From Octopus sinensis (Eukaryota): DNA of 64,000 nucleotides. The DNA is taken from positions 42,036,001 to 42,100,000 of the forward strand of contig NC_043010.1 in NCBI RefSeq assembly GCF_006345805.1. Direction: 5' to 3'. Under the pieces are notes generated by a model that had not been told where the DNA came from, did no database searches, and saw only the letters and a program-made list of their open reading frames with translations. Both the position numbers and the translations under genes were made by a program. Below are positions 1,690 through 28,765 of this stretch, one piece after another (within the stretch, counting starts at the first letter, position 1; every line of letters starts with the position of its first letter).

Positions 1690-2034
1690 GATATATATAA
1701 ACGGCAAAATGTCTGTGTGTGTGTCCTTTATACAAATCCACAACTTTTCAGTTAGAGGGCTCGCACTTTCTATGATCATTCAAAACCGTCCAATGGTGGT
1801 CGTGCACATCTTTATATTTCGCCAGTCACCCCGCAAAGCCATTAAAAAATCAATAGAAGTGACTTTTTTTGTGAATTTTCTATCCAAAACCCAATCAAAA
1901 TGCCCGAAACTTGATACGCCAATTGAATGCCAGCTACCTGTATGTGATTGGTCAGAGATTTAGACAGTACTCGCGTGTATGTGCGCACGCATGCACTAGC
2001 ACTATGACCCGGCGTTGCGGGTCATAGTGCTAGT
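1690..2034 (+). mobile_element. Non-autonomous Helitron-like element with terminal hairpin
   Basis: Begins ATATATATAAACGGCAAAATGTCTGTGTG; ends in hairpin ACTAGCACTATGACCCG-gcgttg-CGGGTCATAGTGCTAGT terminating in CTAG followed by T. Confidence 0.6.
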
Positions 2035-3012: not shown

Positions 3013-3728
3013 TATAAAAGTATATATGCATGTTTTTATATATGTGCGTATGTGTTCGTGTGTAAATGAATATATATGCCTATTAATATATGTTTACATG
3101 AATATATTGATATGTGTACCAAGAAAAGTATATAATAGTAGAGTGAAAAACCTCAAAACGGTCTCTGCAAACAGAATAATGTGGCTTAAAATCTCACTAT
3201 TAAAACCTAAAACTCTCTTAAAATCTATACCAGTTCTACTTCTAATTTCTAAAGAGAAATAATACATCGCTATTCAGTTTTTAAGGATACCCTAAAGAAC
3301 TTGACATGCCTTACGGAATATATTTTCAGGTTGAAAGCTAAAACATTCTTTATGATTTGAAATGGTTCACTGTAAAATTTGCACACGTGAGAGTCTAGAA
3401 ATTATTAACGCCGATTCAAATATTTCCTTAAATTCCAAACATAAGATTATTTTGAACTCTAAATATTTATACTTCTTTCGAACTACTTTCTCTTTTTGAA
3501 ATGTGAAAATGAAAAATTGTCTTCTCTTTTATAAGATAAATGGTCATCAGGATCATTAATACAATACTAATATAATCAAAACGTGTTATAATTACAAAGG
3601 TTGTTGACTATCTTTTCAATTGATCAGTTGATTGATTAACTTGAACCATGAATGTACTCTAAATATATATATAAAATGGATGTCAGACTACAATGCACAA
3701 ATACATATATAAATCCCATTGTTTATGC

Positions 3729-3786
<58 letters not shown>

Positions 3787-3947
3787 TCACACACAACATG
3801 GACAAAACTTCTTAAGAAAAAATATATATTCAAATAAGTAAAACATAATATCATGAATAGCGATAGTGAAACCGGTCGATATATTAAAGATTATATTAAA
3901 ACTATCTAAGTGTGCGTATTTTCCTTTTTTAATTTCTTATATATATA

Positions 3948-4470
3948 CTAGCAGTATCGCCCGGCGTTGCTCGGGTTTGTAAGGGAAATAACTATATAAG
4001 CATTTTTAGTGAGTTATAGCAAAAAAATACCAAAAAAATGCTTAAAAATGGAATAAAAAATGATGGTAATTTTGGTGTCTTCAAGCCATGAAGTCGTTGT
4101 TCTAAAAGAACGCTGGTCTCCTTGACAATACTTTACGACGTTGATTTCCTTACACTCCCTTCCCCACAGTTTCACGAGGGAGGGAAGAAGGGGGAGAAGC
4201 AAACAGGTGCAGGTGTGACCATGAACGCCAACTCCGCCGCCATCGACACACGGAAAATTATGCATTAAAATGTAATAAAAAATGATGTTAAATTATTTTT
4301 AAAATCGTAGACTCATCGTAGACGCGCGCTAATACCCAGAAGGGCTCGATATGAATCATGACTATAAGATACCCGAATTTGGTTAAACTGTACCGCAAAA
4401 TGTGGGAGTAGTTAGGAATCTAAATCGAAGGGGACAGACACTCACACAACTACAGTTTTATATATATAGA
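3948..4470 (-). mobile_element. Non-autonomous Helitron, copy 1
   Basis: On - strand starts TCTATATATATAAAACTG and ends CCCGAGCAACGCCGGG hairpin + CTAG; inserted between A and T with no TSD. Confidence 0.8.
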
Positions 4471-4604
4471 TATATAGATATTTACAAGATAAGGGCAGAA
4501 GAAAAATTCTAATGCCAGATACGCCGAAACAAAAAATTTGTCGATAACCATTAAATTTATGCGTCTCGAAATAAACCGATAGAAATCTCTAAAAAATTCG
4601 TTAT

Positions 4605-4663
4605 TACCGTATTGGTTCAATTTCGGGGTTAATTCACAAGATATTTTCCCCTCTTCAGCGGCA
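4605..4663 (-). ncRNA. Type I hammerhead ribozyme motif
   Basis: UGCCG-CUGAAGA-GGGG..CCCC-GAA-AUUG-aac-CAAU-A-CGGUA: complete core and stems I-III. Confidence 0.8.
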
Positions 4664-4835
4664 CATACGCGAGATATAAATGAAATACTTATTCATACCC
4701 ACGGAAGAAGCAAGTACCAAGTCCCGAGCAGACTTAAGTACCCCAAATATATCCAAATAGAAAAATCTTCGGCGCGCCTCGAGATACCCTTCTTCCGTGG
4801 GTATGAATAAGTATTTCATTTATATCTCGCGTATG

Positions 4836-4894
4836 TGCCGCTGAAGAGGGGAAAATTTCTTGTGAATTAACCCCGAAATTGGACTAATACGGTA
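4836..4894 (+). ncRNA. Type I hammerhead ribozyme motif
   Basis: UGCCG-CUGAAGA-GGGG..CCCC-GAA-AUUG-gac-UAAU-A-CGGUA; predicted cut after A4889. Confidence 0.78.
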
Positions 4895-5018
4895 ATAACG
4901 AATTTTTTAGAGATATCTATCAGTTTATTTCGAGACGAATAAATTTAATGGTTATCGACAAATTTTTTGTTTCGGCATATCTGGCATTAGAATTTTTCTT
5001 CTGCCTTTATCTTGTAAA

Positions 5019-5517
5019 TCTACATATATAAAACTGTAGTTGTGTGAGTGTCTGTCCCCTTCGATTTAGATTCCTAACTACTCCCACATTTTGCGGTGCA
5101 GTTTAACCAAATTCGGGTATCTTATAGTCGTGATTCATATCGAGCCCGTCTGAGTATTAGCGCGCGTCTACGATGGGTCTACGATTTAAAAAATAATTTA
5201 ACATCATTTTTTATTCCATTTTAATGCATAATTTTTCGTGTGTCGATGGCGGCGGAGTTGGCGTCCATGGTCACACCTACACCTGTTTGCTTCTCCCTCG
5301 TGAAGCTGTGGGGAAGGGAGTGTAAGGAAATCAACGTCGTAAAGCGTTGTCAAGGAGACCAGCGTTCATTTAGAACAACGACTTCCTGGCTTGAAGACAC
5401 CAAAACAGAAATGGCTAAGAAAGCCCGAATTGGCATCTATAAGGGAAGTAACTCTCTAAAAATGCTTATAAAGTTATTTCCCTTACAAACCCGAGCAACG
5501 CCGGGCGACACTGCTAG
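5019..5517 (+). mobile_element. Non-autonomous Helitron, copy 2
   Basis: A|TC...CCCGAGCAACGCCGGG..CTAG|T termini; same family as 3948-4470. Confidence 0.8.
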
Positions 5518-5618
5518 TTATGTATAAATTTTACCTTTAAAGGCATTTTTTGATATGCTGGCCATTGATAAACTTTTTTTCCCGAAAAAATTTTTATCCT
5601 ATATCAATTATTATTATG

Positions 5619-5702
<84 letters not shown>

Positions 5703-7839: not shown

Positions 7840-7920
7840 CGCGTGCATGTGTGCGTATATGCAATATTTAGTGTATTAAAATGTTATTTCTGAGTTGTAT
7901 TATGTATACTAGCAAATATA

Positions 7921-8066
7921 TATTTCTTTACTACCCACAAGGGGCTAAATACAGAGGGGACAAACAAGGACAGACAAACGGATTAAGTCGATTACATCGA
8001 CCCCAGTACGTAACTGGTTCTAAATTTATCGACCCCGAAAGGATGAAATGCAAAGTCGACCTCGGC
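7921..8066 (-). mobile_element. SINE family A, 5'-truncated copy with 18-bp TSD
   Basis: TGTATACTAGCAAATATA at 7903-7920 and 8067-8084; matches the 3' half of 8221-8445. Confidence 0.85.
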
Positions 8067-8220
8067 TGTATACTAGCAAATATAAGGCATCTACAATGGA
8101 GGCATAAAATGAAGGAGGGAAGTCAGAACAGCGGTATGTATTGAGAAATGTGTAAATGGATTTGATAGATTACTGGGTGATGTCTTAGAGAAATGACATT
8201 ATTGTTGGTGATACAGTATT

Positions 8221-8445
8221 GAGCTGGCAGAAACGTTAGCACGCCGGGCGAAATGTGTAGCCGTATTTCGTCTGCCGCTACGTTCTGAGTTCAAATTCCG
8301 CCGAGGTCGACTTTGCCTTTCATCCTTTCGGGGTCGATTAAATAAGCACCAGTTACGCACTGGGGTCGATGTAATTGACTTAATCCCTTTGTCTGTCCTT
8401 GTTTGTCCCCTCTATGTTTAGCCCCCTGTGGGCAATAAAGAAATA
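8221..8445 (+). mobile_element. SINE family A (tRNA-derived head, central CCTTTCATCCTTTCGGGGTCGAT domain, tail A)
   Basis: A-box-like TGGCAGAAACG and B-box-like GAGTTCAAATTCC; TSD GATACAGTATT; many related copies in window. Confidence 0.85.
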
Positions 8446-9350
8446 GATACAGTATTCTATTGCAGCCATATGACATGTTTGTAACTAAGTGACCTGTGAT
8501 GACGATTCACTCCCGAACAAAAATAGGCTCCCAGCCTCTATATCATGAATGGTTATGTTGACCACTCCTAACGAAAGCCAGAGCTTTCTTCGACTACTAC
8601 ATAAAAGGTTTTAAGGAAAAATGTTGTTTAGATGTACTTTTATTTTAGTTGTTTACCCTATTTTTACGCTTGTTTATACTCTTATACATTCAAAGTTCAC
8701 AAATTTCCTTATCTAAATTATGCATCATATTCCTTTCGATAATATCAATATCTTTATAGACAATATTTTTTGTTTGGCCGACACTAATTTTCAAATTACT
8801 GGAGGCAGTTGCTCTACTCATTGCGACGTATAACTGGTCGTGTGTAAACATCGGAGTGGGTGAAAATACACCTTCACGATCTAAAGTATAGCCTTGTGCC
8901 TTGTTTGCTGTGAATGGGCGAGCGGTTGCAAAAACTCAAACAAAGACCTACCTCTCACTGTTCTATACGAATAATGCCTGGCTGTTCTGGTACCATGGGT
9001 TATTTTGATTGGCAAAACTGAGATGTAAACAACAGCCGCTTCGATCAGCCGTTTCGAATCCCGCTTGAGAGTGTTACACTTCAATAACCAATAAATAATC
9101 ACACACATTATGTACTGACACACATTTTCCATTTCATCTTCGCTATTAACCGTCCTCGCGACCCATTTCATATCTACGATGGAGCCACAAACTATGCAAT
9201 GAAAATCCAGAGTTACACGTGGTCGGTGAATTTTTAATAAAAATGCGAAGGTGATTTATCAATTCAAAAATCGATATCCACGAAATAGCCATGCTTTCGC
9301 TGTGATAAAATAAAGTATAAACCAACTATTTGGGTCAGTATAATCGACTT

Positions 9351-10334: not shown

Positions 10335-11712
10335 TCGATGTAATCAACTACCTCTCCCGTTGGGTCACCAAGAAACTATGAGTTTCCCAGCAACGGAGTT
10401 TTGTTTCGTGGATTGTTTTTCTTTCCCATGTTATTTCGCATGCTTTCAAAGAATGTGCCATTGAAATCACACGTAAACGGCTCCTTTCCCCAGAAAGGGA
10501 ATGATTTGGCTGCTATTTCTTGCACGCCCTGCTACCATGCAACAGGTATTTCGGGTCCTTTTCGCAAATAGCTGTTACATGATAGCAAGACGTGCTAGAA
10601 ATTGCAGCCAAATTTTTGGATGTGAGATATATAGAATGCACTTGAAAATAACCTATGGAAAAAAAAACTATTTCACACCGAGGTTAAGAACGGATCTTTT
10701 ATGAAATATTTACAGTAGATTTATTTTCATTTTAACATATTTTTTTAATATGCCAAAAAATTTTTGTATTGATATTCACTTGAAAATAATTTTAAAAAAC
10801 ATTAAAAGATTGTCTGTTTGAAGAAAGCTAAACTATAAATACTTACTGTACAAACAGCTTACATTTTTGAAATCTCATTCACTTAAAAATATTTCTAAAT
10901 GATAAAAATATTGTTTAACAAAAGCGAAAATAGAAGCATTTATTGTAAAAAAAAATTCGTATTTATTTTTGTTGTCAAGTCACTGTTTCTAACAGAAAGA
11001 TAAGAGTTTCTTCCCTTTCAGGATTAAGTTTATTTTCGGAATATTTTTCTATTATGCACCGTTTTGGGTATTTATACCCGAAAACCTGAAATCTCTTTAA
11101 AACTACTTGTCCGATTTATGCGAAACTTGTTTTATTCCGTTCGTATTAACAATTCAGGGTCAACTTAATTCATAGTATTTTCCCATTAGGGAAAATAGTA
11201 TTTTCCCAGTTTGGCTAGGTAACATTGCAAGCAAGCAAGCAAGCAAGATTCAAACTAACTTTTAATGTATGATAGATACTAATGAACTCGATGTAATCAA
11301 CTACCTCTCCCGTTGGGTCACCAAGAAACTATGAGTTTCCCAGCAACGGAGTTTTGTTTCGTGGATTGTTTTTCTTTCCCATGTTATTTCGCATGCTTTC
11401 AAAGAATGTGCCATTGAAATCACACGTAAACGGCTCCTTTCCCCAGAAAGGGAATGATTTGGCTGCTATTTCTTGCACGCCCTGCTACCATGCAACAGGT
11501 ATTTCGGGTCCTTTTCGCAAATAGCTGTTACATGATAGAAAGACGTGCTAGAAATTGCAGCCAAATTTTTGGATGTGAGATATATAGAATGCACTTGAAA
11601 ATAACCTATGGAAAAAAAAACTATTTCACACCGAGGTTAAGAACGGATCTTTTATGAAATATTTACAGTAGATTTATTTTCATTTTAACATATTTTTTTA
11701 ATATGCCAAAAA
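10335..11712. repeat. 425-bp direct duplication (10335-10759 and 11288-11712) around a 528-bp insert
   Basis: Copies offset by 953 bp with one substitution noticed; duplicate 67-aa ORFs in the track. Confidence 0.9.
10760..11276 (-). mobile_element. Helitron-like 5' fragment
   Basis: - strand starts TCTATCATACATTAAAAG followed by (CTTG)n, typical of non-autonomous Helitron 5' ends; no CTAG end found. Confidence 0.4.
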
Positions 11713-11929
11713 CATTCCTTCTTAATCTTTTTATTTATGCGCTGTACAATGCCTAGTTCATCGTCTTTGGACGTCTATGATTTATTGCATTCTCTTATCT
11801 CAGTTTCTTTATATAGCATGAGATTAAGTGATCGTAATTAAATTTTACCTTCTTCGTAGTTGCCATGACGCAGAGTTATTGTTATTATAAAGAAAGCTGC
11901 TAGACTCATAATCACACCACGCAAAATGT

Positions 11930-12100
11930 TTAGCAGCAATTGTCTGCTTTACGTTCTGAGTTCAAATTCTGCTGGGGTCGACTTTGCATTTCATCCTTTC
12001 GGGGTCGATAAATCAAGTACCAGTTGAGTACTGTGGTCGATATGATCGACTTTTCCCCCTCCACAAAATCCAGGCCTTGTACCTATAGTAGAAAGGATTA
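11930..12100 (+). mobile_element. SINE family A with tail B
   Basis: TTACGTTCTGAGTTCAAATT..TTCATCCTTTCGGGGTCGAT..CAGGCCTTGTACCTATAGTAGAAAGG then (ATT)n. Confidence 0.75.
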
Positions 12101-12129
12101 TTATTATCATCATCGTTATTATTATTAGC

Positions 12130-13935
12130 AAGTCTGTCTTTGTCGAGTTCAAAATAGTAATTGATAAAGATTCAAAATTATAGAAATTTAAATTGAAAAT
12201 ATGAACAAGAGTAACCAGCATCCAAACGTTGATGGAATGACATCATCAGTCTTTAAGTTTCAGTTTTACAACAGACGAAAAAAAGACAGAAAAAAAAGAA
12301 GAAAGAAAAACAGAAAAGGAAAAGAAGAATAGTAAATGAAATTGCATAAATTTGATGATATTCTCCTGTCATTTTATTAAATCCTGCAGGGCGTGATGCT
12401 TATAACCCGCAAACATATTTCTCCTCATGCATTTTGAGAAGTAAAAGTGAAGCAGATTCAGAATATTTTCTGAGAATATGCACTTTCAAGTCTTTTTCAA
12501 AATTGCAGCCGCTTGAAGAAAAATTTTCGGCAAATTCTTTCTAACTACTGTTGTGCATGTCGTTATATCTGTGGCCATTAAATCTTTTGTTTATTGTTCT
12601 GTTGTACAACCAACATAAATCAAGCTGCGTTTCGTGCATTCTACCGCGTACACCAAATGGGAATCTCTACATGTGCCACGTTCTGTATAAAGCATAACAT
12701 TTCTGTTATAATTCCTGGCGGAATTCACATGACTCATGTTGTTACACAATGAACAGGACTTACCTCTCTTTTGACTTCGTTTTCTTGGAGTCAGAAATAG
12801 AGGTCAATATTCTTATTCCGTCTAAAGGCTATACAATAGGTGGCTGAGGAAATTCTGTTTGAAACGGGTATATTTTTTCCCCACGTGTTGATAACTTTCA
12901 TGAAACACTTTTTAAATGCCAGCGAAATTTCGGTGCCAGTTAATCACTAAATGAATTCTGTCATCTATTTTATTGTGCTTTCAAAATTATGCGTGAAAGT
13001 TTTAGTTACTCTTAGCTATTTCGTTTGCTATTTCCTTTAATCGTTATTCGTGGTAACTGCGTTTGACATAATGATGTACAAAAGCATTTGCATGTTTCCA
13101 GTTATCCCCTATGTCAGTATAAATCCGTTTCAACCGCAAAAATTGGGATTTCGGATTTGACAGAATACTATGATGTGGAGGATCGGAGCAACGGTGGAGA
13201 TAAATGTGTGATGACGTGGGCTTGCAAAATAACTCTGTCACTATTCTGCCTTCAGAAAACTTAACTTTTGTATCCAAAAATTCAACGCTAGTTTTTGAAA
13301 AACTAGACGTAATTCTTATGTTGGACTTAAAGCCATAGACTTTAGCATAACAGACACATAAATGCAAGAAGTCACTTAAACTATCCTGTGACCCTTCCTA
13401 AACAACAAAGACCTCATCAGTGAATCGTAACCAGAGTGTTCGTTGATGATCATGAAGGGATTTTAATGTCTTCAGTAACTGCGTATCAAATTTCGTCATG
13501 AAGACCTTAGCGAAATTAACTGCCACGGGAGTACCCATGGCTAGGTCTGGCGAAATTAACTGCCAAGGGGGTACCATGGCTAGGTCTGGCGGTAAACTTT
13601 TTTGTCCAAACGTCATTGTGTTACTTTGTAACACAAACCTCAATAATCTACAGAGAAAACTTGACAGAGTACTTTGTTTGACAGCTTTTCGATGGCAACC
13701 CTGCATGTTTCTCCCCCTCAATTGTGGTCAGATAACTTTTGTTCTTTTCTCTAGTTTTTAACTTAAAGACTGATGATGTCATTCTATAAACGTGTGAACG
13801 CTGGTTGCTCATGTTCGTACTTTCAATTTAAATTTCTATAATTTTTAATTTTTATCACTTCTTTTTTTGAACTCGACAAAGACAGCCTTGTTGTCGAAAT
13901 AACGTTCAAACAATAAAGTATCTATTGCAATCGCA
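12130..13935 (-). mobile_element. Penelope-like retroelement, 5'-truncated and decayed (RT C-half + GIY-YIG), with inverted pLTR copy
   Basis: AMGTPVAVNFAKVFM, WLRFTDEVF, EFLDT, FCKPT..YLH..S, SQFLRLKRI RT motifs; HLVYAVECTK..LIYVGCT GIY-YIG motif near 12600-12680; 12130-12260 is inverted at 13760-13885. Confidence 0.85.
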
Positions 13936-13950
13936 ATCTATTATTATTAT

Positions 13951-14491
13951 TGAGTGAGAGAGCAGTGCATGCCATCAAAGTGACACTGGGGTAAAATATA
14001 CGAAGCTTAGTATACCCATCATAACTACCCGTCTGATAAGGGTACACTAGGGACATGCATCACAACCACATGTGCGGGACATGGTGATCTCACATCAAGA
14101 TAAACAGCACATGACCTTGTAGGCTGGGTCCAGTTAGAATTTTCTCCTGGTCTGTTAGCCCATCCTGCTCAAAAGGTCTCTGAATAAGGCTGTTAAATGA
14201 AACACCCATGTTTCCAAAGGTGAATTATTCAAACCCCAAAGAATCCCTCTCAACACATGGCTATGATGCTCCCCCTCTACTTCTGCTCGTCATCAGCGAT
14301 GCACATATCGTCAGCCACTAAGGGACATGCTCAACTGGTTAAGGTCAAACAACTGACAAGCAAATCTGTGGTATTGAGCAGAATATTTGCTGTAGCCCAT
14401 CTTTTATACCAAGACAAAACAATGTACATGATAACACTTCCAATCAGTTAAGATCAGAAGCCATGAGAGCCACTGTCTGGTATTGCATCAG
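13951..14491 (-). mobile_element. Probable non-LTR retrotransposon 3' end embedded in (TTA)n
   Basis: GC-richer 540-bp block with (TTA)n on both sides; on - strand ends CTCTCTCACTC(AAT)n; class inferred only. Confidence 0.45.
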
Positions 14492-14497
14492 TTATTA

Positions 14498-14546
<49 letters not shown>

Positions 14547-14704
14547 TTTCGTTCGTCTTGGTGTACTTAGTTCAAATTCCGCCGAGGTTAACTTTGCTCT
14601 TCATCATCGGAAAGTCATAAAATAAATCCCAGTTGATTGCTGGGGTCGATGTTATCGACGTTTCCTTTCCCCCGAAAACGGTGGCCTTGTGGCATAATGT
14701 GAAA

Positions 14705-14716
14705 TTATTGTTATTA

Positions 14717-14777
<61 letters not shown>

Positions 14778-14952
14778 CATCATCATCAATATTATTACTA
14801 TTATTATTATTATTAATTATTATTATTATATTATTATTATTATTATCATCATCAATGTTATTACTATTATTATTATTATTATCATCATCATCATCAATAT
14901 TATTACTATTATTATTATTATTATTATATTATTATTATTATTATTATTATTA
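14705..14952. repeat. (TTA)n/(TCA)n microsatellite
   Basis: Direct reading. Confidence 0.95.
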
Positions 14953-15844
14953 TGCCTGATCGAAAAGTTAGGAGAAATTTTTTAAATTATGTTCTCCCAG
15001 AAAGTCGCCCATTAAGTTAGGCAGCCGGAAGCATTTAAGAGTGTTTTTGTGATAAAAGAAGCATTTGCATTTGCTTTCACTGCACGAATGAGCGCAGTTG
15101 CATGCGCTTTGGCTGAATGCAGTGTTTAAATTTTTTTATTGTTTTTCCATTGCAATGATTCTGCTTTAAGTTAAACACACACAATGGCCAGCAGTAATAT
15201 TTTCTGTACGTAAATTCTGGGTTTTGGTTATGCATTCTTTTCTTCCGTGTCTTTTTTCGTGATTTATTGGATAAATATCATGAGATTATTTTGTTTTAAT
15301 CTCTGCACCTGAACGTCCTTATTTTCAGTTCTTTATATTTGGATAGCTACTAACTAATGACTCAACTAGACTTCTGTGTAGAAATTATAACAGTAAAACA
15401 TTTGTTTTATGGAAACACAATGACGTGTCAATTTATGCTTTTCTGTTTTATTTGCCGGACTTTAAGCAACTAGCGACAAGAATGGCAAAAGTATGGGAAC
15501 TTGAGAGAAGGAACGCATCTGTACTGATTGAAATAAGGCGTCATTAATTACAGATTCTTAGGTATGCAACTAGATTCCTACATTAGTTTTAAATTTGAAA
15601 CCGTATTCTACGGGTTTTTAGAAACTTTGTCGGCAGCTGGTTTTTCATCAGTTTCTGCCTTATTTGATAATCATGGCGACACTAAATTTGTAAGTCCCAT
15701 CTTTCGTAACTTTATGCATGTAATCCAAAATCAGCATTCTTCTTTGTAACTTTGTCCGAATCAGATGGTTTTCATTCGTATAATTTGTCTGAATTAATTT
15801 TATTTTATTTATTTATTACGTTTATATATTTGTTTTGCAAGATT

Positions 15845-16100
15845 TTTGATGTGAAATCGTGTGTTGAAACAAATATTGTTGTATTAAGGAATGGTCATTT
15901 TGCCAGTTTAGCCAATAAAAACACACACACTATATATTTGGTATTACTTTGCTTCAGCGTTATTTATTTTTTACATTAATCTTAATCTTATTTCGGCCAG
16001 AGTTCTTTCGTCACACTCCTGTGACCGCATCAGTGATCCTTTGCTTTCTTCTTTCTTATTTGTGTGTCTCTCCTTATTAACCGTCAGCCATTTTGTATTT
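15845..16100 (-). mobile_element. Probable PLE pLTR fragment with degenerate hammerhead-like motif
   Basis: - strand GATCA-CUGAUGC-GGUCA..UGGCC-GAAAU at about 16040-15985. Confidence 0.35.
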
Positions 16101-16956
16101 ATTTATTTATTTATTTATATATTTATTAATTTATTCGCTAAATTTATCTGGTAATGATTAAGCATGTTGCTCAGTATTTGACAGAATATCAATTAGTAAA
16201 AGCAGAGACATTACTCCACCAAGTGATGCTCATCTATCTCATTGTAATTGTAGTAAATCACTGAGCCTACAGAAGATATGTCAATCGCATGCAGATCATT
16301 GATCGACTTGCTAACAACAGAACCAAAGTCACTCTATCTTGTTAAGAAAAATGAAAGACATATTGGACAATGTGGCCCCTAATCGAGAGGGCCAAGACAA
16401 AGTATTTTGATCATTGGTATGTTCGGTCAAACTTAACTTCGGTAATAAGCAACGAGATCTATCTTATTTTATCGTTATAATATTTCCTTGTTGAAGAGTT
16501 GCTCCTTTAAATGCGTTTCTAAAATCTTTCTGCTCATTTGCATGTGCATAATAGATACTGGAGCATGTCGGATTGAATTGTCAAGTAATACTTAGTTTTT
16601 CCCTTGGTTCCGAACTAAAATAATTTCAAGTTTGACAAAAACGAGATACAGTCAAAATATTTGATCCGATTCCGTAAAATATCTGTTAACTTATTAAATC
16701 TGCTGAGTTAACAAAATAACTGCCCAAAAAATCTTATAAAATTATTTTTGAATGAAATACCTACAGATAGTGGGCCATGCTGAAAAACCACGGTGGAGTT
16801 TAATCAGGTTTTACTAGCCTCGATATAGTCAAAATTTTCATTTTAAAGTATATTTAGATAAGAATGCAAATCTATATATGCACAAATAGGCATGCACATG
16901 ACTGAGTGCCATTTCGAAAGACTACAATATAAGGATATATATTTTGTATTGAAATA

Positions 16957-17195
16957 GGCGGCGAGCTGGCTGAAGCGTTAGCACGCCGGGCGAAATACGT
17001 AGCCGTATTTCGTCTGCCGTTATGTTCTGAGTTCAAATTCCGCCGAGGACGACTTTGCCTTTCATCCTTTGGGGGTCGAAAAATAAAGTTCCATTTCGCA
17101 CTGGGGTCGATCCAATCGATTGACCTCCTCTCCCAAAATTTCGACTTAATCCCTTTGTCTGTCCTTGTTTAGCCCCTTGTGGGCAATAAAGAAAT
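16957..17195 (+). mobile_element. SINE family A, full length
   Basis: GGCGGCGAGCTGGC head to GCCCCTTGTGGGCAATAAAGAAATA tail. Confidence 0.85.
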
Positions 17196-17612
17196 ATATA
17201 TATTTTTTTATTGAATTGTAAACCATATTTCTGTAGTTTTCCGTCTCAATTGTATGTTGTTGTCTTCAACATTCTAAGACTGTTTTATTTCAATATCTTT
17301 CACCTAAGTTATGTTAAATATCACTAACACAATAAGAGGAGCAGTACCATAGAATTTAAATTCTTAGAACTTTGCGTTTCTATGTGTATGTATTTACGCG
17401 TGCGTGCGTGTGTGCTTGTGTGTGTGTACGTGCAAGGTTTATCATTTAATATTGAAAAATCACATCGTATTTTTTGTTTAGATGAGTAAGAATCTATCAT
17501 ATGTACCTTTTTCAACCATTGACATTCGTGAACAGTTGACAGTTGACAGGCAATACATATATGATATTTTACATACATTACATAGAGATATACATATATA
17601 TATATATACATA

Positions 17613-18008
17613 CATGTTTCCGGGCTAAATTTGACAGTTTACATCAAAGGAAAAGAAAATACAACACGATATTCCATCCAAAAACCAAAGTAGTCAAAAA
17701 ACTCAAAAAAATCAACTAGCTTCCTCAGCTTCCTCCACGGCCTCCTGACGGCTCCAAAACATCGTGCTTGAATGTTTAATTCTGTCTCTGGGAAGATCTT
17801 CGAATAGTTCCTTGATCTTGGCCACTAACTCAACCGCATTCCCACGTAATAACTCATGGGATTACAATCGGAGGAAGTAGGAGACCACAAATTGGTGCTG
17901 GCGAAGCCATAGAAATACTTTTTGAATTTTTAAAATACTTTATCTTTGGGTGCGATATTGCGTTTCCTTTCCCTTTTATGCAAACGGTGAAATTTAACCC
18001 GAACACCA
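17613..18008. mobile_element. Tc1/mariner deletion derivative
   Basis: Imperfect TIRs (CGGGCTAAATTTGACAGTTT / AAACGGTGAAATTTAACCCG), TA flanks. Confidence 0.5.
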
Positions 18009-18024
18009 TACACACACACACACA

Positions 18025-18088
<64 letters not shown>

Positions 18089-19654
18089 TCATGAACTTGT
18101 TAATAATTTCTCAAAAGATTTTTTTCTATAAACTGTTTTTAACATCTTATTATTATCAAAGAATGTATACATGTATTGCAACTTGTTGTGCCCAATATTT
18201 TAATGAACTTTTTTATATTTTCCAAAGATTTTTCCTTGTAAACTGTTTTTAACATGTTCTTATTATCATCAAAGAATGTATATATGTATTGTAATATTTT
18301 GTGACAACCTAACACAACAAAGCTTTTACATGTTACTTTTAACAATCTTTTTCTAAAAATGTGAAACCGGTCAAGTAAATAAACATCTTTTAAAATTGCA
18401 TTTTCAAACCTTCTTTCATATATATATATATATAGGTGTTCCCTAATTGATAGCACAGATCAACTGCGATAAAAAAGTAGTCGCAAATTAAGCTAGACCA
18501 TTTATAGATAGCCTGATTTGCAAGTTTGTACTTCTGGCGGCTTGCCATTAATTAAACAATGTTTACGTTAAGCACAGCACACCGTGTTATGCAAACGTAT
18601 AGCGTCTAATCATGTTTATATATATTTAAAATATCTAAAACGTTACATTGACGTATTAATGCAATAATATCTATATTAATGTACGCTAGTGTAACCAAGA
18701 AATTGCTACCAGGATCTGCCGTCTTGATGTTCTTATTCATAATCTAAAACTTTACTCAGGATGGTTTCCAAACATGAACAACAAACATTCATTCATTTCT
18801 CTCCAACACCTTATAACTTGTTGTATCAAAGTGCATACGATTAACAAATGAATAGATGATTATTATAAATCTAAAGTCTATAGAATTTGCTAGAATAAAT
18901 CTTTCCTATGGAAGTAATATACAAGAATTTATTAGCAAAGGAGTATTGATATGTGATGATTTTTGAAGACCTAAAGTTCTTAATCTAGACACATCGGTTA
19001 ATTGTTCAGTTAATCAAACACCAACTTAAAAGATAAACTGGAGCACGTTAATGGCACTTTTTCTTCTTCAGTTTATTTCTTCTTAATGACAAGAACATCA
19101 AAGTAATACTGCATATGTGTATCGATATTGCTTACCAAAGGTCATGTGTTACTTAGTTCTTTAGTTTGTTTTAGACATCAAGGTCACGCTGGACCAATAT
19201 CATCACATATATTTGGCTCTGATCTATATTTTATCCATATTTAAATTAGGTACGGGATTCCGTATGGAGTCACTTTGCTTGTTGGATATAGCAGTCACAT
19301 TTTCATTAAATTACACCCTACCTTCTTAAAACAAAAGGAATATCACATTGAAGAATGCAGTCCTGGATAAATACTATGAGATGTTAGTCAATACTAGAAA
19401 GTTTTAATCATAGTTCTTTTGGATGAGAGATGACCTGTGGTCAAACAACAATAGCAAATCTTTACGTTGGAAAGATACATTTTAATTACCATCGTATTCG
19501 CGAGCATCATCAACACTGTTGCTATTGGCATCTTCGTTGTAGTCATCATCGTCGTAATCGGCCTCCAATTCCCTTTCTCGTCTTCTACCTCCTCCCTCTC
19601 CTCTTGTAAACTACAAAGCACCGCAATATTGGGTTGTTATAATAGAGATTTATA

Positions 19655-19875
19655 AGGCGGCGGGCTGGCAGAACCGTTAGCACGCCGGGCGAAATGCGTA
19701 GCCGTATTTCGTCTGCCGTTACGTTTTGAGTTCAAATTCCGCCGAGGTCGACTTTGCCTTTCATCCTTTCGGGGTCGATTAAATAAGTACCAGTTAAGCA
19801 CTGGGGTCGATGTAATCGACTTAATCAGTTTGTTTGTCCCCTCTGTTTTGCCCCTTGTGGGTAGTAAAGAAATAT
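19655..19875 (+). mobile_element. SINE family A, full length with ~17-bp imperfect TSD
   Basis: Flanks TATAATAGAGATTTATA / TATAATAGGGACTTATA. Confidence 0.85.
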
Positions 19876-19977
19876 ATAATAGGGACTTATACTGATTGGG
19901 GTTGATACACGCTATCGAGAATGGTTATTGTTTGCTTTACCAAATAAAGGTTAGAAAGTATTTTAAACTATAATATA

Positions 19978-20056
19978 CAGGGTGATTCAGAGGTTCCTTC
20001 TGCATTTAAATGATGTATAAAATAAAAATGTTAAAGGGGCTTATTAATCACTCTGT
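19978..20056. mobile_element. Tiny Tc1/mariner-type MITE
   Basis: TA-CAGGGTGATT ... AATCACTCTG-TA. Confidence 0.45.
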
Positions 20057-22809
20057 ACATTTATTTTCTTTAATTAGCGAGATGTGAACTCCCTGGAAGG
20101 GAGTACCTGCATAAGTGTCCTCTTATCTGTGTCTTCCAGTATGTCTTCCTGGTTGTTTCAATATTTTAAGTCATCTGTTCTTCTTCTTGTTTTTATTTAC
20201 TGGCAACACGTGAATCCATAAATTCGTTTTGGCTACTTTGTCAAAAAGATCGTTAAATTGTATATAAAATAAAATTCGAAGGGACTTCAGCGAGTATTTC
20301 ATTTTGAAGTATGTCCCGTTTTGTTAAAATATATTTTCTCTGTAAATACTTGTTTGTTTGCATAGATACCATTTTGTTAACTTTTCGTGCTTAAATTAAT
20401 GTTAGAATTGTCTACAGCTGATTTGACATTCGTAATTGCAAGTAGAACAACGAGAATTCCCACAATCAGCACGCAGTCATTATTCTCTTACACAGTTCTC
20501 GTTTCTGATTGATCACCTTTGGACTTCTCTCTACTTTCTTGGTTATGCATTCATTGCAGTGTAAATATTATGAATAATATTCATTGGTCTTAAATGTATG
20601 CCATAATCTTCCCCAACCCTTTTAAAATGCACTCAATTTTCAGCAGCTTTGTTGCATTTAGTCTTTTATCGACAGTTTTCTTTTAAGATTTAAAAATTTT
20701 ATTTAAAATGTTTCCGCAAATCTACCATTTTTCTTCGTCGTATTCAGATTTATATTTTTCTATAGAAATTCAGTAAAGGAAATTAATACAATGATCATCA
20801 TATCTTTGACACTTTACCTCGTATTCTTCTTTTACCCGACTTTTTATCTACTTACATTCCACCACTCTCAAACATATGTTCAATATATCTTTTAGTTAAT
20901 TATATTTACTTCCTAAACCTAATCAATATCATCTTCCATCTCAGCTTTCACTTTCTTCTTTCATTCATATAACACTTCTACTGCTTTTCAAAACTTCTTT
21001 TCATAACCATAAATGCTTTTTAACAATATCTCAGCATATTTTTCTTTATAATGTTCTAGTTTTTCAAAGCACTATCGATTTATCTATCTGTCAGTTTGTT
21101 TGTCAAGCTATGGGGAAAATATGTGCGGCAATCTTTTTCTCTCTTAAATAGTATATTTCGTATATACATAGCCATATATCAACAACGTCCTAAGGTTTCA
21201 TGATGCCTGTGAATGTAGCTCCTCGTCTGTGGATTTCTCTTTACATTATTTAGGATAATTTCAAGTCACACGTCCGGAAAAAAAAAACAACCGAGAGGCA
21301 CTTGAGAGACGAATTGTAATTTGTCTTTGTATTTGTGTGCCACAGTTGCTTGGGCCTACACATAAAATACATTAATTGCAGCCTATGGAATATATGCAAA
21401 TGTTGAGCAAATCCAACAACAACGAAAACAATCTCAAAATGCGCACTTTACATGAACTTTATTGTAACACAAATGGAGCCAATCGTAGTGGACGGATGCA
21501 AATCAGTAAGACTTAATTGAATTAAACTTTTCAGAAATGTCATATTTGTATCGCCGTAAAATATTCCAGAATTATCACCCCTTGCTTACTGTTGTTAATA
21601 TCGTTTAATTTAACTTGACAACTAACACATTCCTATTAGCTTTAAGCAATTGTTTTATCATAGTCGTCGTCATCATCATCCCCATCATCGTCATCATTAT
21701 TGTTATTATCTCCTCCTCTTCATCATCATCATCATCACCATCATCATCATCATCTTCGTTATTATTATTATTATTATTATTATATTATTATTATTATTAA
21801 ACTGTTAGTTCATGAACACTACAAAACAAAATGCACGTGCCGTTGCCGTGGTACGCCACTGAACTCATTGATTGTATGTTTACTTGATGCACACATATTC
21901 CTCCCCCACCTCAAAAAACAAAACTTAAAAAAACTAAAAAAATCATTTTAAAAATGGAAAAGCAATGAGCCAACAAAGGGACCTCTACACAGGTGCTTCA
22001 CTTGCTAGATGTAGTAACCAAATCATTCTCAAATCACAAAAAAAAAAACAAAAGTAAGGCACACTTAGATAACCGAGTTCTAAAATAACCCTAAGTAGCC
22101 AGGATGGTGACGGCTGATGAGTCATTGACCCTAGGTCTGTTTGTATGAAGTTGACCAGCAGCAGAATTAAACAACATTCGTCAGATCCAACGAAAACAAC
22201 AACAACAAACGAAATAACACATGGAAACAAATGATTGTAATAATATAATAATAATGCCATTTCAGTAGACATATGAATGAACAGTAGTAAACATTACTGA
22301 ATGCTATTGAACTCTAATAAACTCTAGTGAACACTAGATAACAATAACAAACGCTGATGAACACTGTCAAGAAAAACGCATAATTATAGATTTTAATTTT
22401 TTTTTTTGAGAAAGTAACGAGTTGTTTATGATTTTTTTTTTTTTTAAAAAAAAAAAAAGGTAACGAAATCGCAAAGTATTTTATTGAGCCAACGAGAGAT
22501 CCTGTTCTGACCTTACTCGACTTGCTAAAAGTAGCAATCCCCCCAAATCACACACAGTGCTGTTTTATAAAAAGAAACACACACAAAATACACTTACTGG
22601 AAATAGAATTATAAAGAAACATAGCTGACTTGGTTAAACAACAATAACACGAGTTAGTATATTGTTAACTAACACAAGACTTTAATATTGTCAATTTAGC
22701 GATCTATTATGTCACCAAAGCCATTTGGAAAAGTATAGACGGGATTAATTCTTTTATCCCTCGTTTGTACTTATTGTTCATATAATCCATACTACTGCTG
22801 CTGCTGCTG

Positions 22810-22852
<43 letters not shown>

Positions 22853-22902
22853 AATTTGTTCACTATTGAATGCACACACATACACACACACACACACACA
22901 CA

Positions 22903-22938
<36 letters not shown>

Positions 22939-23200
22939 TTATATATAAACATATATAAAATCATTCACTTTATTGACTATATATATATATACATGAATGT
23001 ACACAATTACATAATGTATAGACTATATATAATATAATATGATATCACAAACATGCACATGATATAATGCACTCAGAATAGATATGTAAATAGATGATTT
23101 TTCGATTATATCTAATTATTTCATTCACTTTACTGTTGCGTGAAAATTAAGGACAGATCATAATGATATTTGCTCAGTAACACTTCAGTACCGAGTGAAA

Positions 23201-26200
23201 ATGGCAGACTCACACCCTAAGAAGACCAAAAATATCTCAACAAATCCAACATTTCCAGCCTCTCCATCACATGATGCACCCCCACATATAACTGTCAGTC
23301 CACCACCCCTTGCAACACCACCAGCAAAAGACTCACTACCATCAACATCATCATCATCATTAAAAGCATCATCAACAACGGTGACTACTGAGATTTCTAC
23401 TAGTGCCCGATTGGCAACATCAAGACAGTCTAGTAGTGTAGATTCATCTGCTTGTACAGAAAAATTGACAAGATCGTCGTCACAAAATGTTTCAAGTGTA
23501 AAACAATTACCTTCAGTATCAACTTCTTTGTCTGGAGCTAGTACTTCTTTTCAGACCAGGACTGGCACTGCCCCGAAACCCATAGCCAAACCTACCAGTT
23601 TGAGTCTGTATCGTCCCCTCGAAAATGGTGGGATCGGTTACAGTCTGAACGCCTCAAAACATTTTAAAGAAGGGGATAAAAAAGCGAAAAAAGGTGACAA
23701 AGAAGATTTAAATTCGAAATTTAAGCAAAAGACAAGACGTTGGTACTCAGCTGATCAAGAGCCAGAGTATTTTACAGAAAATGAAACACCGGAACAAACC
23801 CAACATAAGACTGAGTCTGAAAGTCACAAAGGAACTTTTAATAAAAGTAATAGTCTAGAAGAGGGCCAACAGAAGAGAGTTCTTGATAGAAGAGGTGCAT
23901 TCAAGTTTAATAAAAGCAAATTAAAAGGTGGCAGTCAGCAACGATGTAACACTAAAAAAGAAAAGGATAAAATGCAGAAAAGTAATAGTACAGATAATAA
24001 TTATGTTGGCGATGATGATGGTGATGTTGATCGTAATGATGATAAAAAAAAATCTAGTAGTGGCTGTATGCCTGGCTCAGGAAAACGTAAAAAGATCAAT
24101 CGTTATATTGGACATTTGGGGAGTAGCAATGAGGGAAGCGATGAAAGTGAAGGCTTCGAAAGTTCGGGCCGCGAACAGAAAGGAACTTTAAATCGACTGA
24201 GTAATAGTTTCAATCTTGGTTTACTTGGACTAGGGCTCGGCGCAACTCGTTCAAGCCAGAAAGATGAGAAAAAGAAAAAGTCTAGTAAGAAGAAAAAAGA
24301 GGATAATGAAAATAGTTGGTCTTTTAAAAGAAGGAAGCCAAAACGTAGCAAAAGTGAAGGATCGAATAGCAGTGACGGCACAGACACAGACGAGAGTTCG
24401 GCAACTACTTCAGAAAGTGGCTATCATAAAAGAAAAAAAGGTGGTATAGATCAAGCTCTCAGAAATACTGCCATAAGATCGGTAACAGAAATGATAACTG
24501 CAATACAAGCAATAGAGCTCCCGACTGTAACGCCATTTGATAGGAGGGAAGCGGTTCACAGATCCGAGAGCATGACTGAAAGAGAAGAGAGTTGGGATGA
24601 TGCTGGATGTCCTCATTTCGAAGAAATGTCTTCATGCACTCGATGTTATGAGAAGGAACATGACTGTAGAAATATTAATACTAATACAGAGCCAAGAGTT
24701 CCTTCACAGTCATTGTGGTTGTCGTACGATAACCGCAAACAAACTGACAATGAAGAAAGTTTGCGGTACGAAATACAAGAATCGGCAGAAAAACGAATGT
24801 CGCTAAAAGAACAATGGCTAAAGGAAAACAAACTAATAACATCCGAGCTTTTGTTACCCAAAACAATGCACCTAAAAACACCTCCTCCGGTCAGATCAAC
24901 TCAAGACGTCGGACAATTTCATAATAAAGCTATTTCTCAGGATAAATTTATTGCAGACCCAAAATCCTCAAAACCATCCCCTTTGTTAAATCCACAAGTA
25001 TCCTCTCCATCTTATGCGCTTGCGTACATTCATGAAAACTCTAAATCAAACAAGCAGGGGTCCGTACTTCCCCTAAGTCAAGCTTTAACATCAACAATGA
25101 AGGAACAACAGTCAAGTATAAAATACAAATATTCATCAAGCTCAGCTGGGTCTTCGTTGAACCCTCAAAATGTTACATCATCACAATCACTGATATCAAC
25201 CTTTCCGAATGTAATAACGAACCGAGAAAAGGGCATAGTTGAGAAAGAAAACGAAAAACTGGATTTTCACGGCGAAACACTTGAATCACAAAAACGTTTT
25301 CAAATGAAACATCCAAGTGAATTCCAAAACGAAGAAACTCTTGATAAATCATGTGAAAATAAAGAAAAGAAAAATGAAAAGAGCGAAGAGTATTCTGACA
25401 AGCAAAGTTGTAAGTTCTTTCAATCGAACAGTAAACCATCTCGAATACCCATCCTTACTCAAAGATCGTCGTCGGCCGAAGGATTTTATAGAAATAAACG
25501 AGTAGATTTGAAAAAATCAATGAGTATTGGTACAAGTGTTTCTAGAAGTGGAGACAGGTACGCAGATATGTTTGTTTCCCAAATTAAAACTGGTAAAGCA
25601 AGGGAACGACAAGTACCAATAAATTCGCCGGTCTACACTAATGCGACTAGTATGAGTGGCTGCAAACTCAAAACTGATAATGCTTGTACAGGGACGACGT
25701 TGTCAACTAATAAAACGGTTGTTTCTTCACTAGCTATGAATGTGTTGCCTCCTTCAGAAAACAGTATAAAATCCATTACAAGTACGTCTACTATTTCCTC
25801 TGATACTACAATACATACTATTGACAAAACCTATGCAAAAGATCAGGTATCTTCACTTACAGATCCAGCCGTATCATCTACTAATCATAGCAGCGGTGCA
25901 AGTGAAATTATTAACCTGAATAGCAAAGGTTCTGCTAGTGCCATTAATGTCTCTGCTAGTAGCAGAAGTGCCGGTACCGCAGATGGGAAATGCCACTATT
26001 ACGACGGTAGCAACAGCCACTGCCAACAGTCAGTCAATAGGACATATAAGCTAATACACAGATCACAATCTGGCAACGACAGCCTCTGCAAAGCGGCTCT
26101 ACTTCACGCTTCTAACGACAGCGAAAGGAGAAGTGATGTGTCTATTGTTGACAGTAGCACGGTTGACTTGCATGGAGCTATTGATGTCGCTGGCAGTGGA

Positions 26201-28218
26201 AGCTATGCGCAAGCAGAAATTGTTGCAACTGCAACGAAACCAACACGAGGAGCGGAGAGAAGGGAAAACAAAAGGTTAGAAGAGAATAGGAATGTAATTC
26301 AAAAACAATATGTGCAAACTTCAGCGACAACACAATCCTATCAACCACTTGTTACTAATGTTACCACTCAGCAGACTATCGGAGGAGGTTACCAACAGAC
26401 AATTAAAAAAACAGAGCAACATAAATATCAACAAAAACAACTAATTCTGCAACAGAACACGTCATGTTTACGATCATCAGCATCGTCAAACAGGGAGTTG
26501 GCATCTAGTTGTATCAAAGGACAAGATGGTGTTTATTTTGAGCCTGGAACATTTAATAAAACAGATATAGAACAAAGAGATTTTAATAGTATTAACAACA
26601 GAAGAATCAACATCAGTAACAATGGAACTGATTATACAAATGTATACTCCCGGGAGAGGCAGCAAGGGGCAAAATCAATCACATCCACTGATGGTACCGA
26701 TTCATTGGAGCGGTCCTGGAACCTTGATAATGGCCAGAATTTAAGTTCCACTCAAGAAACGAGTGATGTCCGAAATCCGAGGTATAAGTCACCAGAATTA
26801 AAGAAAACTAAGAATAATCTCAGTGAAGATAAATGTCAACACAGTCAACCGGATCAAATTAGCCGAAAGACTGCAGAGCCAAGTAATTACCCATTAGTTT
26901 GTACTGTTTATACTGCCGATGGTCTGGAAACCATTCCGATATATCCGTATTATATTAGTAACAGTACTGACGGCGGAGACTCGAACTATCAGGACAACTA
27001 CTCAAGTAGCTATCATTTTAATGTGGGAGATTCGAAACATACAGCTTCGTCGAAAATAGCTTTTACAAAATTAGTGGACTGTACAGAGGCTTCGTCCCAG
27101 ACCGAAACCACATCTCCAGCAATTAGTCAAGTATCGTCGATTAGTTCAACAGCTGGTACATCATCGAGAGCGGTGACAGTTTTAGCAGCATCTGCATTAG
27201 CAACCACCTCTTTAGCCGCTGCTACATCAGCCAGACGAACTAAAGCGTGTGCTGAAAAGAAGAAAAAACTACAAGAAACTATTCAACCATGTTCCGGTAA
27301 AATCACAACAAACCAAGGCGATGTGCGCTATAGCAACAGAACAGCATACCAGGTTTTCCATCCTGACAACAGCTCCAGTCACTTACCTACTACTGTAGCA
27401 TACGACTCTTGTCAGAACTTTCACAATGATAGCTGCTGGCCTGTAACCCACGTAGCTAAGAGTCAGGGCTTAAGTCACGCAGGGAATGCACCAGCCTTAG
27501 CAACTTACCGAACGAAGGAATCCAGTGAAGCCATACCAAATATTGTTTTGCCGAAAACAGTGTCTAAGGCAGACCACGTTGCTAGAAGTAATCGACGAAT
27601 TAGCTCAGCACCTTTACAACATCAAGAGACACCTTTAATTGCATCAGGTCATCAAAATTATTCTAATGTATATGCATACCCTCCTCCCCCACCCTATCCT
27701 CCCCCTCCTCTTCCGCTACCTTCTTCTCAGCATCCCTGCGCTTGCTCTCATCAATGTTTACAACCGTCGCGGCAATCGTGTTTACGGTTTAACAACAACG
27801 TTGACACAAACACATTAAATGCCCCGTTGTTGTCTAACACTAGCACGACTATAGCAGCAGCTACTAATATTACGTCTACGACTACACTTTCTGCTGGGGA
27901 TCTACTCAAAACAAACTGTCAAATAGAAACCGGAGACGATGGATTTACTTCGATATCTAACCATGGAAGACGAATGAAAATAAGTAATCATAATAATAAT
28001 AATAATAATAATAGTAATAATAATAATAATAATAATCCAAACAGATTTTGCAACGATAACTGGCAAAGCGCCTATAGCGATTCCCAAAAGATGTCATCGT
28101 CCCGAAAGCCCCCACGACGAACTCGAGTAATGGATCCACCTGTAAACTTTCACAATCGACGAGACAGGTCGTTTGGGTTTTTATCATTTCGTCTTGGAGG
28201 AACAGAGAAGAATTTCAG
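23201..28218 (+). CDS. Giant coding exon of an unidentified host gene; ~1670-aa Ser/Thr/Lys/Gln-rich, probably disordered protein region
   Basis: Uninterrupted 5-kb ORF in AT-rich DNA; AAAATGG start context at 23201; ends at CAG|GTAAAT donor (GT 28219-28220), with in-frame TAA at 28220-28222 if unspliced; basic NLS-like runs, PPPPPYPPPP, poly-N; no folded domain recognised. Confidence 0.85.
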
Positions 28219-28765
28219 GTAAATAAGAAGCAGAAATGCCACAGTTAAGGTTTACAATTTCTTATTTGAGCTGTTTTCTTCGTTTTGTGTGCCATGTGTT
28301 TTAATTTCAACTTTATATTTCAGAATTTTACTTCGTGTTTTGAAACTACCACTTTGTACTTCATATTATTTACATGTACACACGCGTGTACATGTACACA
28401 CACATACACACAGAATCTTATGTCAATATAGAATAAACAGTAAATATAATGCATGCAGGAGTGTGTGTGTGTGTATGTGTGTATGTGTGTGTGTGCGTGC
28501 TCGTGGAATGCAAGGAAGAGTGAGAACAAGCGGGTAGGGTAGGCTGACAAATTGAAAGATTGAGTGAGCGAGAGATGGTGAGAGACACTACGAGGGTTAC
28601 GTTTTGGTCAGTAATTGTCATACTTGTTCCGTACAATTACACAAGTTAAAATAAAATTATCAATACAACACATTAAAAATAAAGACAACCACAACCTAAG
28701 TGAAAATATTTATTCTTTTAATGTTATTATAAGTTGGGGTGAACCGCAGACGCCTACCCCCACTC

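Follow-up and report, generated by a model that had tools for sequence, protein, structure and literature searches.

A palindrome of Penelope-like element ends framed by two Helitrons in the Octopus sinensis genome

In a stretch of 64,000 nucleotides of the Octopus sinensis genome, the whole of which was analysed (the window), a palindrome occurs in which the end of a Penelope-like element (PLE) is present in two inverted copies, each joined at almost the same point to a Helitron. This raises the question of how two unrelated kinds of mobile element came to be mirrored at a single locus. Self-comparison of the 64-kb window shows that positions 3948-4710 and 4789-5517 are reverse complements, ~96% alike and separated by a 78-bp spacer (4711-4788), as had been reported in the first-pass annotation of this DNA. 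On the right, the unit consists of the spacer, the hammerhead-bearing arm, a first Helitron (A), a 3' continuation, a tail-like end and a (TA)n run, while the left unit comprises the mirror arm, ten extra bp, a second Helitron (B) and an unrelated flank. The palindrome is a pile-up of known mobile elements, representing a single, partly explained transposon nest. Its individual parts are of known kinds, while no description of a Helitron-framed PLE palindrome was found in the titles and abstracts searched, most subscription papers lying outside the reach of this search. The features are as follows.

3948..4470, minus strand: Helitron B, non-autonomous, 523 bp (or 531 bp with the outer TC at 4477-4478 taken as its start)
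4471..4480, plus strand: TATATAGATA, the ten extra bp at the left junction, a candidate target-site duplication and internal primer
4481..4710, minus strand: mirror arm of the PLE-like end, ending at the point that matches the insertion of Helitron A in the other arm
4605..4663, minus strand: minimal type I hammerhead, left copy, from the descriptor (core 4658, predicted cut at 4610)
4711..4788, plus strand: spacer, the unduplicated multi-copy 5' part of the PLE-like element, native on the plus strand
4789..5018, plus strand: direct arm of the PLE-like end
4836..4894, plus strand: minimal type I hammerhead, right copy, from the descriptor (core 4841, predicted cut after 4889)
5019..5517, plus strand: Helitron A, 499 bp, inserted between A and T within the PLE-like element, without duplication
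5518..5614, plus strand: 3' continuation of the PLE-like element
5620..5698, plus strand: (TA)n target run, carrying the second copy of TATATAGATA at 5655-5664

The hammerhead-bearing part of the arms spans 230 bp with eight mismatches (3.5%), while the Helitron parts show 19 mismatches over 452 aligned bp, together with a 14-bp indel near 5297 and the ten extra bp at the left junction (4471-4480). An unrelated module distinguishes the two Helitrons near their 3' ends (46 bp at 5406-5451 on the right, 56 bp at about 4014-4069 on the left); both this difference and the further indel had been observed in the first reading of the sequence and are confirmed here. Three public contig runs (X1, X3 and X5) were compared with positions 4711-5615, yielding 11,398-28,613 aligned pieces per run; the contig depths given below are sums, not copy numbers, and serve to indicate presence and rough order. 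The inversion joint 4711/4789 recurs in contigs of two of the three runs, X3 (four contigs) and X5 (one contig), which argues against an assembly fold-back. The X3 and X5 contigs carry two other organism labels, and the copies of the joint they contain represent either the orthologous locus or other copies. A chimeric or folded-back assembly would fit with the absence of the joint from those listed for X1, with the lack of a listed contig spanning the locus and with the proportion of words (0.66) found in the best run, but is considered highly improbable given that the arms differ by ~4%, by indels and by the module, and that the joint is present in X3 and X5. In the raw-read run X22, nine reads of 12.9 million match 4711-5615, while exact-pattern scans of metagenome, viral and prokaryote genome contigs yielded no match.

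Insertions of PLEs are described in the available portions of three sources (PMC8557442, PMC3846280, PMC11167929) as bearing head-to-head pLTRs, a shorter inverted copy, a one-sided tail of 30-40 bp and duplications of 8-10 bp at TA or AT-rich targets, and in vitro a PLE protein is able to cleave both strands at AT-rich sites and to extend them (PMC11167929). The start of the mirror half is called unresolved in the accessible text of two of these (PMC8557442, PMC11167929). The palindrome resembles endonuclease-positive PLE insertions, as far as those portions describe them (PMC3846280, PMC8557442, PMC11167929), in its head-to-head ends, shorter inverted copy, hammerhead, one-sided extension, TA-rich target and possible 10-bp duplication. 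The inverted, 5'-shortened copy is the arm at 4481-4710, which mirrors 4789-5018, and the target is reflected in both the (TA)n run at 5620-5698 and the TA-rich left junction. Unlike the insertions in these accounts, the mirror arm stops ~62 bp short of the apparent end of most copies, exactly at the nested Helitron, and is joined to a second Helitron, and no ORF is linked to the insertion. No RT or GIY-YIG ORF linked to the element family of the arm was found at the locus, and the arm has no further copy elsewhere in the 64-kb window.

A type I hammerhead descriptor matches twice in the 64 kb, once in each arm, and not at all in 50 Markov-simulated windows. The right copy possesses CUGAAGA, a 4-bp stem II, GAAA and a palindromic stem III with a G-U wobble at 4885, where ~100% of the contig pool has C, while in the left copy a change at 4617 leaves stem III with 3 bp. 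Two weakened stem pairs are restored in the pool consensus, with T at 4835 (72-76%) and C at 4885. The Rfam search returned 93 matches in the window, mostly of microsatellites to miRNA models, and no hammerhead. Minimum free energy folding of the isolated hammerheads gave values no better than those of shuffles (z -0.88 and 0.13), so that the assignment rests on the descriptor. As a motif, judged from the sequence, the type I hammerhead known from the terminal repeats of PLEs is present. The locus also resembles the non-LTR retrozymes (10.64898/2026.07.22.740005, as far as its available text describes them) in that a short non-coding repeat akin to PLE ends carries a type I hammerhead, but the copies at the locus are exclusively inverted and no head-to-tail tandem array occurs.

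Canonical Helitrons, as characterised in the accessible part of PMC4067079, begin with TC, end with CTRR, carry a palindrome of 16-20 nt ~11 bp from the 3' end and insert between A and T. Both copies at the locus have TC...CTAG ends lying between A and T, with a 16-nt hairpin 12 bp from the end (5490-5505 in Helitron A and 3960-3975 in Helitron B), and thus show the canonical termini and terminal palindrome; the insertion of Helitron A between A and T is further evident from its empty site. They resemble the canonical non-autonomous Helitrons of that source in the 5' TC, the 3' CTAG, the 16-nt hairpin and the insertion between A and T without duplication, but differ from those it describes in that two copies of different subtypes frame a retroelement end. 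The earlier proposal of an inverted PLE-type centre with a hammerhead in each arm and two Helitrons is supported. Recent copies of both Penelope and Helitron families have been described from Octopus vulgaris (PMC13282606, in its available portion). The module of Helitron A additionally contains a hairpin with a 14-bp stem ahead of the terminal one (5440-5481, z -3.3), which is lacking in Helitron B (z 0.77).

Helitron A interrupts the PLE-like element between A and T, and the element extends ~100 bp further. In two contigs of each of X1, X3 and X5 a joint from 5018 to 5518 skips exactly the 499 bp of the Helitron (TC..AG), and the sequence past 5517 is itself multi-copy, both of which place the Helitron internally in the element. 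The first-pass annotation had positioned it at the end of the pLTR, and this part of the claim fails for the right arm. Past 5517, ~62 bp of high depth (to ~5580) are followed by ~35 bp of lower-depth, tail-like sequence and then by (TA)n. Position 5573 is covered by 102-107 contigs in each of the three runs and one X5 contig spans 5519-5614, and in X1 the summed depth is 757k at 5548-5578 versus 58k at 5579-5609. This ~13-fold drop after ~5580 may correspond to the one-ended tail of 30-40 bp seen in PLEs, although low complexity could also cause it. The summed contig depth of the spacer resembles that of the arm. An imperfect hairpin (5567-5598) occurs at the 3' end of the element, and the proximity of the depth drop at ~5580 to its loop recalls the initiation by RT within a stem-loop described in the accessible text of PMC11167929. 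A variant of the element, probably multi-copy and apparently lacking the hammerhead region, is represented by a same-strand joint from 4757 to 5536 in X3 and X5 (summed depths of 456 and 50, respectively).

Solo copies of the Helitron are common, since 168-230 contigs per run continue past its end (behind 5518) into unrelated AT-rich flanks. Helitron-free PLE sites and solo Helitron ends are both present in the contig pool, while none of the 24 listed contig pieces (of ~62,600) crosses the composite junction at 5018/5019. Each of the two 3' modules is also found in other copies in the pool, as is the longer variant of the 14-bp indel; the left-type module occurs at loose contig ends, and the module of Helitron A accounts for 418k of a summed depth of ~735k in X1. 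An origin of Helitron A as a direct template-switch copy of Helitron B was considered and rejected, as its module is common in the pool.

The left arm ends at the same point at which Helitron A entered the right arm, and is there joined to Helitron B. That a mirror arm should stop at the base of an insertion in the opposite arm is the central oddity of the locus. It does not carry the 3' continuation, as positions 5518-5618 find no match in 3400-3948 (score of 19 versus a shuffle mean of 22), and the missing left 3' end has not been displaced nearby. Between the mirror arm and Helitron B lie the ten bp TATATAGATA, which recur at 5655-5664 in the right TA run, where ~35 bp of TA separate the tail from this second copy. 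The 14-mer TATATAGATATATA occurs only twice in the 64 kb, at 4463 and 5655, while an equivalent C-interrupted 14-mer occurs ten times. Interruption by TATATAGATA is observed in one of 12 TA runs of at least 30 bp, and by the shorter motif in either orientation in two of 18 runs of at least 20 bp. Judged by its sequence, the pair looks like a target-site duplication derived from the 5' end of Helitron B itself, which would put this Helitron at the site first; A and T flanks are seen at its insertion site, and it was likely resident before the retroelement landed. Compared with the element at the junction, TATATAGATA matches at eight of ten positions, among the two best of 396 positions, and it matches the element without Helitron A equally well (8/10). 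The flank at 3785-3947, between a (TA)n run and Helitron B, contains GAAACCGGTC and terminates with a run of TA. Although it does not match the hammerhead descriptor, it may, by its resemblance, be the decayed end of another PLE family.

At 4835, 4862 and 4927 (5-24% of the pool) and at 4962, both pLTR arms carry the minority allele, and their sequences fit derivation from one template or from one minor subfamily. None of the eight near-fixed changes in the right arm is common to the left arm, and the mirror is therefore about as old as the insertion, having formed within about the first 31% of the history of the right arm. Helitrons A and B share alleles at 5057-5113 but differ at the pool-polymorphic positions 5148, 5153 and 5188 (assuming that new mutations fall uniformly and ignoring hot spots, P 0.002-0.03). 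Given these three differences, and a module whose two forms both occur elsewhere, they look like separate copies. Over 452 bp, Helitron A carries four to five private changes where ~7.9 would be expected (P about 0.2; Fisher P 0.20-0.45), and looks no older than the pLTR arms.

The leading reading, which is put forward tentatively, is that a PLE-like end landed beside the resident Helitron B, the end of which primed the mirror arm internally, and that the template probably carried Helitron A. An endonuclease would have nicked the TA run at the 5' end of Helitron B, and one nick would have primed synthesis at the 3' end of the element, copying through to 4711. The other target end, namely the 5' end of Helitron B, would have paired within the template at the junction and been extended to 4789, giving rise to a twin-priming-like internal duplication with TATATAGATA left on both sides. 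The least secure step is that Helitron A was already present in the template, in which case ~500 bp of homology between the two Helitrons may have set the priming point, and the coincidence of the junctions would be explained. The right-hand TA run would then have expanded by ~35 bp at a later stage, a requirement that counts against the target-site duplication. The empty site, the depth beyond 5517, the mirror arm without a 3' part, the alleles shared by the arms, the early origin of the mirror, the differences between the two Helitrons and the restriction of TATATAGATATATA to 4463 and 5655 all favour twin priming beside Helitron B. The register, as read from the sequence, is less favourable, the junction being 2 nt off with Helitron A in the template and 1 nt off without it. 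Helitron A need not have been in the template, since the 10-mer matches the A-free element equally, and its presence there is opposed by the lack of a second composite among the listed contig pieces and by an apparent age no greater than that of the arms. Twin priming of L1 yields internal duplications (10.1101/2024.08.27.596794, in its available portion) and would be similar in that the second target end pairs within the template to produce an inverted, duplicated part. Unlike L1 as described there, the locus has no poly(A), and the partners in the proposed pairing are two copies of an unrelated DNA transposon. The priming sites described in the accessible text of PMC11167929 are, in contrast to the step proposed here, not homologous to the cut DNA.

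Symmetrisation after insertion would dispense with a composite donor. The element would have landed beside Helitron B with a normal mirror arm or none, and Helitron A would have inserted later; template switching or loop deletion between the inverted Helitrons would then have either removed the 62 bp left unpaired or generated the mirror arm. Such a course is rather unlikely, although it is consistent with Helitron A being no older than the arms and with the Helitrons being separate copies. As none of the eight near-fixed changes is shared, the copied arm must be early, while the ten extra bp persist where exact correction would erase them, no microhomology occurs at 4711/4789 ('both' = 0) and the head-to-head form is in any case the ordinary product of PLE insertion. 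A further proposal, in part that of the first-pass annotation, is that the element was duplicated whole with its Helitron A at integration and that the outer left was later replaced by another Helitron through conversion or deletion. The same junction on both sides, the similar divergence along the arms (3.5-4.6%), the alleles shared at 5057-5113 and the alignment of the left outer flank with the first bases after Helitron A are in keeping with a duplicated composite, and in this respect the earlier suggestion is tenable. The later remodelling it requires is an extra rare event, the two Helitrons differ, with pool-polymorphic differences beginning already at 5148-5188, the left arm lacks the 3' end of the element and TATATAGATA in the right TA run is left unexplained, all of which render it doubtful.

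The first-pass annotation had alternatively ascribed the locus to two independent Helitron insertions at equivalent pLTR ends through a strong target preference. The 3' flanks of the Helitron are indeed AT-rich (168-230 contigs per run), the left flank agrees with the flank consensus at 8 of 11 positions and Helitron A may be the younger. The right site is, however, internal and unremarkable, agreeing at only 6 of 11 positions, and by a crude site score based on a flank consensus with 0.45 agreement, 27 of the 95 A-T sites in the Helitron-free unit, and 3453 in the window, score as well. A strong sequence preference was therefore rejected, and the missing 62 bp would require a separate cause, so that independent insertion at equivalent sites is improbable. 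A variant, in which Helitron A would have entered at the first unpaired A-T exposed at the foot of an extruded 230-bp hairpin, is just as doubtful.

As a single locus, the palindrome preserves a legible record of the way in which the mirror half of a PLE insertion is initiated. Genome-wide recurrence of the pattern would show that PLE priming can be determined by homology with an unrelated transposon nearby, and would provide long dsRNA from a source open to testing; a unique occurrence would amount to ordinary transposon nesting. In a transcript across the locus, 676-687 cross-arm pairs are predicted, in helices of up to 80-124 bp, lending support to the earlier expectation of a strong potential for long dsRNA if the locus is transcribed. 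A search of public runs listed no RNA run as containing the locus, the six runs presumed to be RNA sharing 0.27-0.30 of its words. Repeats, including Helitrons, are known major A-to-I targets, and young repeats in inverted orientation are edited in animals generally (10.1101/2020.01.19.911685, in its available portion), so that this potential is by itself unsurprising. It is conceivable, though very doubtful, that PLE-type RNAs with Helitron cargo home to resident Helitrons by base pairing and prime on them, and that the kilobase palindromes which the two transposon classes would thereby keep producing supply substrates for the RNA editing, or the silencing by small RNAs, of both families.

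Several other repeats occur in the window. An older PLE-like copy with the same insertion form is located at 12130-13890, with inverted ends of ~190 bp carrying a CTGATGA core, of which one enters an ATT-type repeat while the other continues beyond that length. A similarity between this copy and the palindrome arm was not found. Its broken RT-like frames (13044-13727, minus strand) have no Pfam match, while their atlas look-alikes (0.97) bear PF26215 in 15-28% of their members. At ~1690-2033 (plus strand) lies a small Helitron-like element that belongs to a different family and has a long hairpin, a CTAG end followed by T and a worn 5' end. The inverted pair 7917-8071 and 8295-8449 (155 bp, 90% complementary, 223 bp apart) overlaps SINE-like repeats. 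A direct repeat of ~425 bp (10335-10759 and 11288-11712), with a single mismatch (10586) and copies 953 bp apart, arose by very recent duplication or is a duplicate introduced during assembly. A low-complexity open frame of 1692 codons without a Pfam match, located at 23144-28222 (plus strand), is probably one large exon.
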